Sequence record: SRR31156797_1590
Reading direction: 5' to 3' (one strand)
Length of the DNA stretch: 45,978 nt
Shown here: in pieces, positions 10,028 to 12,339 of the stretch
How the letters are laid out: each line of letters begins with the position of its first letter
Position numbering within the stretch: the stretch's first letter is position 1
Made by a program: the position numbers and the translations under genes
Notes under the pieces: model-generated
Seen by the model: only the letters and a program-made list of their open reading frames with translations
The model's database searches: none
Told to the model about the DNA's origin: nothing

Positions 10028-10158
10028 GCGTCTTCCCCTTTCGGAAAACGCGCTTGAATTCGGACTGCAAACAGCGGGAATAAAAGGATTAACACCCCTG
10101 CGTGCCGGAGGTCCGTTACTCCCGGCCAGACGCAGTTCTCACATTTCGTCCAAAGTAC
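10028..10158 (-). ncRNA. Candidate structured 5' leader RNA of rsfS-gpmI
   Basis: GC-rich island between promoter and rsfS with three helices (10154-10148/10065-10059; 10135-10098; 10051-10028 with GAAA loop); family not recognised. Confidence 0.4.
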
Positions 10159-10164
10159 AATAAG

Positions 10165-10195
10165 ATTATATAGAGAATTTACGCCCGCTACGCAA
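10165..10195 (-). promoter_or_regulatory. Sigma70-type promoter for rsfS-gpmI
   Basis: TTGCGT (10195-10190), 17-19 nt spacer, TATATAAT (10172-10165). Confidence 0.6.
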
Positions 10196-10247: not shown

Positions 10248-10282
10248 TTATGAAAAAAGAACCCCGAAATTTCAATGAAATG

Positions 10283-10314
10283 TTGACGGTGGGTAAACAC
10301 TTATGTCATAAACT
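10283..10314 (+). promoter_or_regulatory. Probable promoter of the leader-paaK transcript
   Basis: TTGACG at 10283-10288; -10 ambiguous (CATAAA at 18-nt spacing or TAAACT at 10309-10314). Confidence 0.45.
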
Positions 10315-10319
10315 TCTCC

Positions 10320-10379
10320 ATGCTTAACCACGACCTTTTTTCCTTTTTCTTTTTTTTCTTTTTTAGGACTGAAATATAG
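10320..10379 (+). CDS. Phe-rich attenuator leader peptide MLNHDLFSFFFFFFFRTEI
   Basis: ATG CTT AAC CAC GAC CTT TTT TCC TTT TTC TTT TTT TTC TTT TTT AGG ACT GAA ATA TAG; 8 Phe codons, 7 consecutive; overlaps alternative RNA stems. Confidence 0.85.
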   Translation: MLNHDLFSFFFFFFFRTEI

Positions 10380-10456
10380 TCATCCCGTGGTTATGGAAAA
10401 ATACACTTACTGAGAGTTTACCGGGCCACGGGCGCAAACCCCGTGGCCTTTTTTTT
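10325..10456 (+). promoter_or_regulatory. Ribosome-mediated transcription attenuator
   Basis: 1:2 TAACCACG (10325-10332)/CGTGGTTA (10386-10393); 2:3 CCCGTGG (10384-10390)/CCACGGG (10426-10432); 3:4 terminator plus U8. Confidence 0.85.
10424..10456 (+). terminator. Attenuator terminator upstream of paaK
   Basis: GGCCACGGG-CGCAAAC-CCCGTGGCC-TTTTTTTT, about 50 nt before the paaK ATG. Confidence 0.92.
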
Positions 10457-10507
10457 ATTTTGTAACTTAAACCCTGTACCGGGATCAGCCATATCAGGAG
10501 GCAAGCG

Positions 10508-11818
10508 ATGATCTTCGACGTAGACAAGGAAACAATGCCGAGGGAAGAGCTGGAAGCATTACAGCTCAGACGTCTTAAACAGCTTTGCGAGCGCGTTTAT
10601 GCCAACGTTCCTTTTTACACCAACAAGTTTAAAGAACTGGGCATAGAACCCAAGGATATAAATTCTCTATCCGACCTGACCAGACTGCCTTTCACCGAAA
10701 AGCAGGACCTGCGCAACCACTACCCCTTCGGCCTTTTTGCTGTTTCCCGCGAGAACATCGTCCGCATCCACTCCTCTTCCGGTACCACTGGCAAGGCTAC
10801 TGTTGTCGGCTACACCAAACGCGACATCAAAAACTGGGCGGACCTGATGGCCCGTTCCTTCGCCATTGCCGGCGCAACTCCAGAAGACAGCATCCACAAC
10901 GCCTACGGCTACGGCCTTTTCACCGGGGGCCTCGGCGCACACTACGGAGCAGAAGCTCTCGGTGCGACCATCATCCCGGTTTCCGGCGGCGGTACCAGAC
11001 GCCAGATCATGCTGCTCAAAGATTTCGGTGCAGACGTAATCTGCTGCACTCCTTCCTACGCCCTGTTCCTCTACGAGACAGGTAAAGAAATGGGCATTGA
11101 TTTCAGCAAGCTGCCCCTGCGCATAGGTATTTTCGGCGCTGAGCCATGGACAGAATCCATGCGCCGCGACATCGAAAGTAAGCTGAACATCAAAGCCCTC
11201 GACATCTACGGCCTTTCCGAGATCATGGGCCCCGGTGTTGCTATGGAATGTGCCGAAGAACAAAACGGCCTACACATCATGGAAGACCACTTCCTGCCCG
11301 AGATCATCAACCCCGAAACAGGCGAGCACGTGGAACCGGGCGAGGCTGGAGAGCTGGTAATCACCACCCTGACCAAAGAAGGCATTCCGCTTATCCGCTA
11401 CCGCACTCGCGACCTGACCCGCTTGAACTACACCGCCTGCCGCTGCGGCCGCACTTTCGCCCGCATGCAGCGTATCATGGGACGCAGTGACGACATGCTC
11501 ATCATTCGCGGCGTGAACGTATTCCCGTCCCAGATCGAGTCCATCCTCATCGAAACAGAAGGTCTCTCCCCGCATTACCAGCTGGTGGTTGAACGCGACG
11601 GAAACCTCGACATCCTGACTGTAAAAGTCGAAATTTCTGGTGCCGCTTTCTCCGATGAAATTAAAAATTTACAGCGTCTCGAAAGAAAGATACAAAAAAC
11701 TATTAAGGAATTCCTTGGCGTAACCGCCCGGGTCAAACTTGTGGAACCCAAATCCATTGAACGTTCCGTAGGTAAGGCCCAGAGAATTCTCGACCTGCGT
11801 AATCAGGACCAGCAATAG
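10508..11818 (+). CDS. paaK: Phenylacetate-CoA ligase
   Basis: [68 protein letters not shown] at 10496-10501. Confidence 0.93.
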
Positions 11819-11844
11819 AACCTATTCAAATGCGAGGAAACACC

Positions 11845-12276
11845 ATGAAATGTGACCAGCTATCCATATTCCTTGAGAACCGTGCCGGAAGACTCGCCGA
11901 GGTAACCCGTCTGCTTACCGAGAACAAAGTCAACATCCGCGCTCTCTCCCTTGCCGACACTTCCGATTTCGGTATCCTGAGAGTTATTGTCTCCGACTTT
12001 GATACCGCACAGAAAGTGCTCAAAGACGCAGGCTTCACCGTAGGCAAAACCTCCGTTGTTGCCGTAGAAGTTGACGACCAGCCCGGCGGACTGCACAACC
12101 TGCTCGAAATGCTGCGCGGCTCCGGCATCAACGTGGAATACATGTACGCCTTCGTACACCAGTCAGGCTCCAACGCCGTGATCATCTTCCGCTTCGATCG
12201 CACCGATCAAGCCATCGAACTGCTCGAATCCAAGAATATCAAAATGATCCCCAGCGAAGAACTTTGTAAGCTGTAA
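11845..12276 (+). CDS. Tandem ACT-domain (amino acid-binding) protein
   Basis: QLSIFLENRAGRL...NIRALSLADTSDFGILR...DQPGGL...NVEYMYAF; GAGG SD before ATG 11845. Confidence 0.9.
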   Translation: MKCDQLSIFLENRAGRLAEVTRLLTENKVNIRALSLADTSDFGILRVIVSDFDTAQKVLKDAGFTVGKTSVVAVEVDDQPGGLHNLLEMLRGSGINVEYMYAFVHQSGSNAVIIFRFDRTDQAIELLESKNIKMIPSEELCKL

Positions 12277-12299: not shown

Positions 12300-12339
12300 A
12301 AGGGAGATTTTAACTTGAAATAGTTAAAATCTCCCTTTT
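12300..12339 (+). terminator. Terminator of the paaK-ACT operon
   Basis: AAGGGAGATTTTAACT-TGAAAT-AGTTAAAATCTCCCTT followed by TT. Confidence 0.8.

Follow-up and report, generated by a model that had tools for sequence, protein, structure and literature searches.

A phenylalanine leader-peptide attenuator upstream of a PaaK-type aryl-CoA ligase and an ACT-pair gene in Maridesulfovibrio, with a probable role in making phenylalanine from phenylacetate

Genes annotated as indolepyruvate:ferredoxin oxidoreductase (IOR) and PaaK-type ligases occur across the anaerobes; their usual interpretation in gut bacteria is degradation of amino acids to phenylacetate, a metabolite of medical interest. In which direction IOR and ligase run in a given organism is a question that gene content alone cannot answer. 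We asked it of a locus in a 45,978-nt stretch of record SRR31156797_1590 (the window; coordinates given without a locus label are those of this whole stretch, one strand, 5' to 3'), where a paaK-type ligase gene and a gene for a tandem ACT protein form a two-gene operon that is preceded by a short open reading frame (ORF) with a run of phenylalanine (Phe) codons. The window is chromosomal DNA of Maridesulfovibrio, a sulfate-reducing bacterium of the Desulfovibrionaceae: its ligase protein was 99% and 98% identical to those of loci L001 and L014, which belong to named Maridesulfovibrio sp. records. Our reading is that Phe starvation induces paaK-ACT and that phenylacetate is then converted to phenylacetyl-CoA, by IOR to phenylpyruvate, and finally to Phe. 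We give this reading a probability of roughly 65%; the substrate, the link to IOR and the direction of flux are deduced from the regulation and from gene content.

The 188 bases from the leader start to paaK hold a 19-codon ORF and, behind it, an intrinsic terminator (Table 1). Seven consecutive TTY codons were found at this one place in the window and not in any of 100 shuffles, and the leader holds no candidate regulatory codons other than those for Phe. Segment 2 has two alternative partners, namely segment 1 inside the leader ORF and segment 3, the 5' arm of the terminator, and the pairing of segments 2 and 3 (2:3) represents the antiterminator. In minimum-free-energy (MFE) folds the free RNA adopted the pairings 1:2 and 3:4; when a ribosome stalled in the Phe run was masked and the transcript was ended before segment 4, the fold switched to 2:3. 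Phe-codon ORF, terminator, exclusive antiterminator and sequestering segment are all present and, judged by these features of the sequence, the upstream element is a ribosome-mediated Phe attenuator of the leader-peptide type, which is predicted to respond to charged Phe-tRNA and to allow read-through on scarcity. The preliminary description of this DNA had relied on such attenuator logic, on a paaK plus ACT gene pair and on the lack of paa ring-degradation genes. The leader ORF, the terminator with its T run and the alternative pairings bear out the first point, and the Pfam, TIGR02155 and PF19571 matches given below the second. The third agrees with a Pfam scan of the 39 further ORFs of the window, where neither paa ring-degradation genes nor IOR genes were detected.

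The leader would work as follows. With ample Phe-tRNA, the ribosome would reach the leader stop (10377) and cover segment 2, the 3:4 terminator would form and transcription would stop in the T run, roughly 50 nt short of paaK. If Phe-tRNA is scarce, the ribosome would stall in the Phe run and occupy segment 1, leaving segment 2 free for segment 3; the 2:3 pairing would block the terminator and paaK-ACT would be transcribed. PaaK, an AMP-forming ligase, would then convert phenylacetate to phenylacetyl-CoA, which IOR, encoded elsewhere, would reductively carboxylate to phenylpyruvate with reduced ferredoxin, and an aminotransferase would turn phenylpyruvate into Phe. Phe shortage would turn on this salvage route alongside the de novo pathway, and a ligase made only under such shortage would also set the direction of flux at the reversible IOR step. 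A Phe-codon attenuator is sensible only for a gene that relieves a shortage of Phe, and it is thus the regulatory logic that points to the direction of flux.

Table 1. Features of the paaK-ACT locus in the window and of the aromatic leader region in a relative.
Feature	Position	Strand	Remarks
Putative -35 box TTGACG of the leader promoter	10283-10288	+	TTGAC(G/T) box at the homologous position throughout the genus
Best -10-like hexamer, CATAAA	10307-10312	+	
Leader peptide ORF, MLNHDLFSFFFFFFFRTEI	10320-10379	+	19 codons, 8 Phe, 7 of them consecutive at 10344-10364
Segment 1 (AACCACG)	10326-10332	+	leader codons 3-5; partner of segment 2 in ribosome-free RNA (MFE fold)
Small hairpin GACU(7 nt)AGUC across the leader stop codon (TAG, 10377-10379)	10367-10381	+	MFE fold
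Segment 2 (CCCGUGGUU)	10384-10392	+	alternative partners segment 1 and segment 3
Intrinsic terminator	10423-10449, T run 10449-10456	+	10 pairs, 8 of them G-C, then 8 T
Segment 3 (GGCCACGGG)	10424-10432	+	5' arm of terminator; complementary to segment 2
Segment 4	10440-10449	+	3' arm of terminator
Shine-Dalgarno AGGAGG of paaK	10496-10501	+	
paaK-type arylacetate (probably phenylacetate)-CoA ligase	10508-11818	+	436 aa; profile and structure-sequence matches
Stand-alone tandem ACT protein (ACT_8 pair)	11845-12276	+	143 aa; PF19571; alternative start 11830
Terminator-like hairpin closing the two-gene operon	12300-12337	+	16 pairs, weak T tail
aro-operon leader region, relative G002	L103:9930-10130	-	upstream of ADH synthase gene L103:9078-9875

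We surveyed 26 Maridesulfovibrio genomes and found the ligase in all of them. The leader ORF, the Phe run and the terminator were present together in 18 of the 26, where frame, ATG, Phe run and stop were kept with synonymous TTT/TTC variation and varying run lengths. The most distant genome of the genus (84% PaaK identity) also keeps the leader, MNNHGFFPFFFGFCHFFMTQN. In an alignment of 19 leaders, the proportion of pairing was 100% for the terminator, 99.4% for the 2:3 antiterminator and 97% for helix 1:2, compared with 27-55% in controls with the partner columns slid. In one leader (L117), segment 3 had a G-to-A change, for which segments 2 and 4 each showed a compensating C-to-T change. The small hairpin across the stop codon, which may be a pause or ribosome-release element, was 82% paired over the 19 leaders and showed no double-sided change. 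As for the promoter, a TTGAC(G/T) box was present at the homologous place in 26/26 upstream stretches of the genus; a promoter consensus scan of the region called none at 10283-10312, and the leader promoter there is putative. The (TTY)5 pattern gave 68 matches in five genomes and the reversed control pattern 79. When other Phe runs were inspected in 30 loci and 5 regions, only the paaK leaders were short ATG-started ORFs. Nine of the other runs were examined closely as possible leaders and rejected: they corresponded to the antisense strand of Lys/Glu-rich coding sequence.

The aromatic operon of the relatives carries a leader of the same kind. In G002, one of five close relatives, all with pheA, the operon comprises genes for ADH synthase and DHQ synthase II, followed by pheA, aroA, tyrA and trpEGDCF. 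Upstream of it we found a leader ORF of 36 codons, MQTFNTLGTGLSYFFYFFYFWCTHACGRVEVCLYKK (beginning MQTFNTLGTGLSYFFYFFYFWC), with the run YFFYFFYFW, followed by a strong terminator; the region had a fold z-score of -3.6. Of 25 loci in the genus, 24 have this leader and the other is a truncated contig; in one genome the query protein found no match. It has the same layout as the paaK leader, mixes Tyr, Phe and Trp, and looks like a mixed Tyr/Phe/Trp attenuator. In both leaders (window 10283-10322; L103 ~10121-10165, minus strand) the ATG stands about 7 nt behind the best -10-like box and has no Shine-Dalgarno; judged by this spacing, both leader peptides may be translated from leaderless transcripts. 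The shared leader type on both operons suggests that leader-peptide attenuation is how the genus controls aromatic amino acid synthesis, with paaK-ACT belonging to that set under a Phe-only signal.

The ligase ORF matched both the AMP-binding (PF00501) and the AMP-binding_C_2 (PF14535) Pfam domains. Its closest solved relative was PaaK1 of Burkholderia cenocepacia (2y27; 498 bits, residues 8-431 aligned), and it matched the Bacteroides ligase 4r1l with 414 bits, both similarities spanning the whole length. We therefore read it as a PaaK-type aryl-CoA ligase, with phenylacetate as its probable substrate. The ACT gene follows after 26 nt. Two features favour its start at 11845 over the alternative one: the alignment to the ACT_8 profile begins at residue 1, and there is a GAGGAA 7 nt ahead of the start codon. 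The protein scored 106.4 bits on PF19571 (ACT_8), for which the gathering score is 23.5 bits, with residues 1-142 covering profile positions 1-140 of 141, and PF01842 (ACT) matched it in two stretches. The closest solved structure, PDB 2f06 ("conserved hypothetical protein"), aligned with 113 bits (E 6e-32), and a loop of the ExxxGxL type (E11, N12, G15, R16, L17) was invariant in the alignment. Binding of amino acids by this protein would be expected from its domain family. The likeness to the Phe-binding ACT domain of PheA from G002 was a generic loop match of 30 residues (E 0.018).

The route requires an IOR, and the preliminary description had accordingly named the lack of an Ior-type enzyme as evidence against it. 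We found iorA in all 26 genomes of the genus: 25 copies were over the curated cut-off and the last one was cut by a contig end. At L037, iorA (730.6 bits, over the cut-off) is followed by iorB, for which IOR_beta was the best family (161.4 bits, under the 205.8-bit cut-off), and iorB adjoined iorA wherever inspected. Members of the PaaA (TIGR02156) and Oah (TIGR03200) families were found in none of the five close relatives; no known outlet of phenylacetyl-CoA toward ring degradation is thus visible in them, and benzoyl-CoA genes were likewise absent from the window. In G002, neither an aromatic leader nor an ACT partner was present at PaaK paralogues 2 and 3 or at an F390-like ligase; leader and ACT partner occurred only at the first paralogue (PaaK-1), which is also the closest to bona fide PaaK (621 bits on TIGR02155, compared with 494 and 393 bits for the others).

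Outside the Desulfovibrionaceae, we examined six loci whose homologues of the ligase share 55-63% identity with it; they come from Actinomycetota, a Termititenax and a metagenome-assembled genome (MAG) of the Eubacteriales. The cluster contained an IorB-type gene and a second PaaK-type ligase in 6/6 of these loci, an IorA-type gene in the scanned part in 4/6, and a Pfam-confirmed ACT_8 gene in 5/6, the sixth having an ACT-like ORF recognised by alignment only. This clustering of IOR, ACT and paaK in all six loci ties the ligase-ACT pair to IOR. Within the Desulfovibrionaceae the ACT gene directly followed paaK in 10/10 Maridesulfovibrio loci, in 8/9 loci of other genera except Mailhella, and in 0/4 loci of Mailhella (three truncated loci were left out). 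A tree of 17 ligases supported a Desulfovibrionaceae PaaK-1 clade (98/96), whose place among the IOR-linked ligases was an open polytomy; paralogue 3 and the F390-like ligase formed long branches. We make no claim of orthology from this tree. No Rfam family reached its gathering score in 15 related loci (129 kb), and the regions ahead of the IOR-paaK clusters in other phyla held no T-box or other element known to Rfam. Finally, two of the six clusters, both from Actinomycetota, had a sodium:solute symporter gene (PF00474; L010:2250-3890 and L012:2342-3964) between the ACT gene and two paaK genes, beside iorB. These symporters are candidates for the aryl-acid importer of the IOR-ACT-paaK module.

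Several results weigh against Phe-controlled synthesis from phenylacetate. In eight of the 26 genomes (L120, L121, L123-L128) the leader ORF is lost or remodelled: the position of the ATG reads AGG, or a long ORF with a TTG start replaces the leader. Covariation is thin, with one double-sided change per helix, all from L117, because the leader sequences are very similar. Shuffled sequences reached the observed scores in 287-488 of 500 cases for the terminated structure and in 21 of 500 for the antiterminator. In equilibrium folds of the full-length leader the terminator always formed, so that the antiterminator would have to act kinetically, during transcription; kinetic operation is typical of other attenuators. 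The Rfam model Phe_leader (RF01859) was not matched (19.5 bits, gathering score 55, E 0.83), and five other sub-threshold Rfam rows were at chance level. The ligase scored 621.2 bits on the PaaK equivalog TIGR02155, below the 646.3-bit cut-off, as did the PaaK-1 copies of relatives (619-625 bits), and each of the five close relatives has three PaaK-like paralogues (about 620, 500 and 400 bits); the substrate could therefore be another aryl acid. The genome-wide checks were made in relatives, from which the statements on IOR, pheA and catabolic genes consequently come. There, paaK and iorA are unlinked (about 1.0-1.1 Mb apart in G001 and G002), and no aromatic leader stands upstream of iorA (L037), hence no co-regulation of iorAB is visible. 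The relatives have a complete de novo pathway, which makes a salvage route dispensable, and the locus has no phenylacetate transporter. The interpretation given in the preliminary description is partly supported. Its core, an operon that works anabolically, withstood the tests available here, among them its own refuting condition of a missing Ior-type enzyme. The regulatory logic, iorA in 26/26 genomes, the lack of PaaA and Oah in 5/5 relatives and the same type of leader on the aromatic superoperon speak for it; the check it proposed, for Phe/Trp/Tyr runs in the leaders of iorAB and of further paaK paralogues, turned up none at paralogues 2 and 3 (G002) or at iorA (L037).

One rival explanation keeps the attenuator and its anabolic logic and changes the ligase, which would be broad or different and might act on 4-hydroxyphenylacetate or indoleacetate too or instead, giving a general aryl-acid salvage gated by Phe alone. 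The three paralogues per genome, none of them above the equivalog cut-off, fit such a ligase, as does a tree that does not place PaaK-1 in any one IOR-linked ligase group; moreover, according to the accessible part of PMC13285125, the IOR-linked ligases of Bacteroides and C. difficile act on phenylacetate, 4-hydroxyphenylacetate and indoleacetate. The paaK leader, however, is Phe-only where the aro leader combines Tyr, Phe and Trp, which suggests a Phe-specific product, and PaaK-1 is the paralogue nearest to bona fide PaaK; we regard a broad ligase as unlikely. A catabolic ligase, which would start anaerobic degradation of phenylacetate for carbon and energy behind a T-rich leader that is no working Phe sensor, is the least probable of the explanations weighed here. 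Its family name and its closest solved relative, from the aerobic paa pathway, are catabolic, and eight genomes of the genus do without the leader ORF. Against that, the five close relatives lack PaaA and Oah, the window lacks paa genes, leader ORF, terminator and antiterminator are conserved together, and the attenuator would shut the gene off exactly when the precursor amino acid is plentiful.

The other two explanations concern the fate of the product and the working of the leader. Phenylacetyl-CoA could be made for other ends, such as detoxifying or trapping phenylacetate or serving as an acyl donor or signal in amino acid starvation, with the ACT protein as an unrelated small regulator. 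The unlinked iorAB genes without an aromatic leader would suit this, and phenylacetyl-CoA is a signal in Burkholderia in the accessible part of bioRxiv 10.1101/700799; yet a Phe-specific starvation signal has no obvious rationale in detoxification, and the ligase clusters with IOR and ACT in 6/6 loci of other phyla, which leaves such uses very unlikely. Alternatively, the leader region could be a terminator that is constitutive or otherwise controlled, by a protein or a small RNA, its Phe-rich ORF never being translated. The leader ATG has no Shine-Dalgarno, six genomes (L123-L128) keep a terminator-like hairpin and T run before paaK without the leader ATG, and Rfam gave no match. On the other side stand the retention of frame, ATG, Phe run and stop in 18/26 genomes with synonymous TTT/TTC variation, an ATG about 7 nt behind the -10-like box, as fits leaderless translation, and the same layout in the aro-operon leader; an untranslated leader thus seems slightly less probable again than those other uses.

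Phe-controlled salvage of phenylacetate remains our preferred explanation, and a more specific form of it can be put forward tentatively, as a possible but rather doubtful extension. The Phe attenuator on paaK-ACT would be a switch of flux direction at a reversible IOR: IOR would always be present, synthesis or not of the irreversible AMP-forming ligase would decide whether Phe is fermented to phenylacetate or rebuilt from phenylacetate taken up by scavenging, and the ACT pair would add a second, fast, ligand-sensing layer on ligase or IOR. That the ACT pair is a ligand-sensing accessory of either enzyme is the most natural guess, and its role as a Phe-feedback subunit is a guess as well. Predictions of a PaaK-ACT complex, run without supplied alignments, gave scores of 0.31, 0.31 and 0.32 (threshold 0.34, controls 0.00) and weigh neither for nor against binding. 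If such a switch exists, a biosynthetic function would follow for the IOR-ACT-paaK modules of Actinomycetota, Bacillota, Margulisiibacteria and Bacteroides, and organisms of anoxic sediments and guts would cross-feed phenylacetate as a "pro-amino acid". The regulatory signal also offers a cheap and specific experimental handle on flux direction in a cultivable sulfate reducer. In addition, the locus gives a first physiological context to the widespread, uncharacterised ACT_8 pair proteins, and the two leaders, Phe-only on paaK-ACT and Tyr/Phe/Trp on the superoperon, extend leader-peptide attenuation of aromatic metabolism to the Desulfovibrionaceae.

Leader-peptide attenuation is textbook knowledge, and methanogens are known to use the pathway, which has also been proposed for Bacteroides; the locus is therefore not a new kind of system. 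The leader resembles the enterobacterial pheL-pheA and pheST attenuators (RF01859) in its short ORF with a Phe run, its terminator before the structural gene, its exclusive antiterminator and the predicted read-through at scarce Phe-tRNA. It differs from pheL in its Desulfovibrionaceae host, in having no homology to the Rfam model, in the genes controlled (aryl-CoA ligase and ACT rather than pheA or pheST), in the place of segment 1 (codons 3-5, ahead of the Phe run), and in a leader ORF without a Shine-Dalgarno; the accessible part of PMC3082878 places 53 known pheL genes in the gamma subdivision. Methanogens assimilate aryl acids through a phenylacetyl-CoA ligase and IOR, according to the available parts of PMC4162585 and PMC6737245, which cite Porat 2004 and Tersteegen 1997. 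As far as these parts describe it, the route of Methanococcus maripaludis and Methanothermobacter shares with our proposal the enzyme families, the activation of phenylacetate, ferredoxin-dependent carboxylation and transamination, and it likewise coexists with a DKFP-type de novo pathway, here represented by ADH synthase and DHQ synthase II in a relative. The present locus, in contrast, belongs to a bacterium, stands behind a Phe leader peptide, and has a ligase gene that is unlinked to IOR and partnered with an ACT pair.

In the accessible part of PMC13285125 (2026), the IOR-linked AMP-forming enzyme of Bacteroides is an arylacetate-CoA ligase, and such AMP-forming ligases favour acyl-CoA synthesis. 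That system shares with ours the ligase family (4r1l) and the argument from an AMP-forming ligase plus IOR for biosynthesis over degradation; as described there, its case rests on co-localisation and in vitro activity, whereas ours rests on a regulatory signal. Burkholderia PaaK1 shares the two-domain architecture of the ligase, yet here there is no paaABCDE-type partner in the relatives, the regulation is opposite to induction by substrate and the partner gene is an ACT pair. Stand-alone ACT pairs (PF19571, 2f06) match the ACT protein over its full length, unlike the ACT domain of PheA, to which the likeness is limited to the generic loop. In a literature search with subscription journals largely outside its reach, we found no publication that connects paaK or phenylacetyl-CoA ligase with an attenuator or a leader peptide, and none on aromatic leaders in Desulfovibrionales; Rodionov 2004 (PMC545781) makes no mention of phenylalanine, phenylacetate, aromatic or leader. 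What we did not find described is a sulfate reducer that combines a Phe attenuator gating an arylacetate-CoA ligase and an ACT pair with a mixed aromatic leader on its de novo superoperon.

The operon lies among housekeeping genes, with gpmI and rsfS divergent upstream and rtcB downstream. For RNA data we compared four metatranscriptome runs, of 11 runs with small shares, using Logan contigs that mostly came from relatives at 90-95% identity. No contig covered the leader region (10271-10483), and such contigs show neither transcript ends nor levels. The paaK-ACT junction was spanned by a single contig of 192 nt (X3), which differed in two letters and one gap, in a run that possibly contains DNA. 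In run X5, the end of paaK and the start of the ACT gene (11757-11982) were covered by two short contigs from a relative, with 6 and 13 differences; their word depths were 2665 and 2234, compared with 3.7 for a third contig, and contig depth cannot rank genes.

Paralogue 2 of G002 (L051:1483-2778), which scored 493.5 bits on TIGR02155, begins 54 nt behind the stop of a 475-aa ORF, a putative dnaB read without a family scan, and is followed by a small membrane-like ORF. In the ligase tree, it grouped weakly (87/47) with an IOR-linked ligase of a Termititenax MAG.

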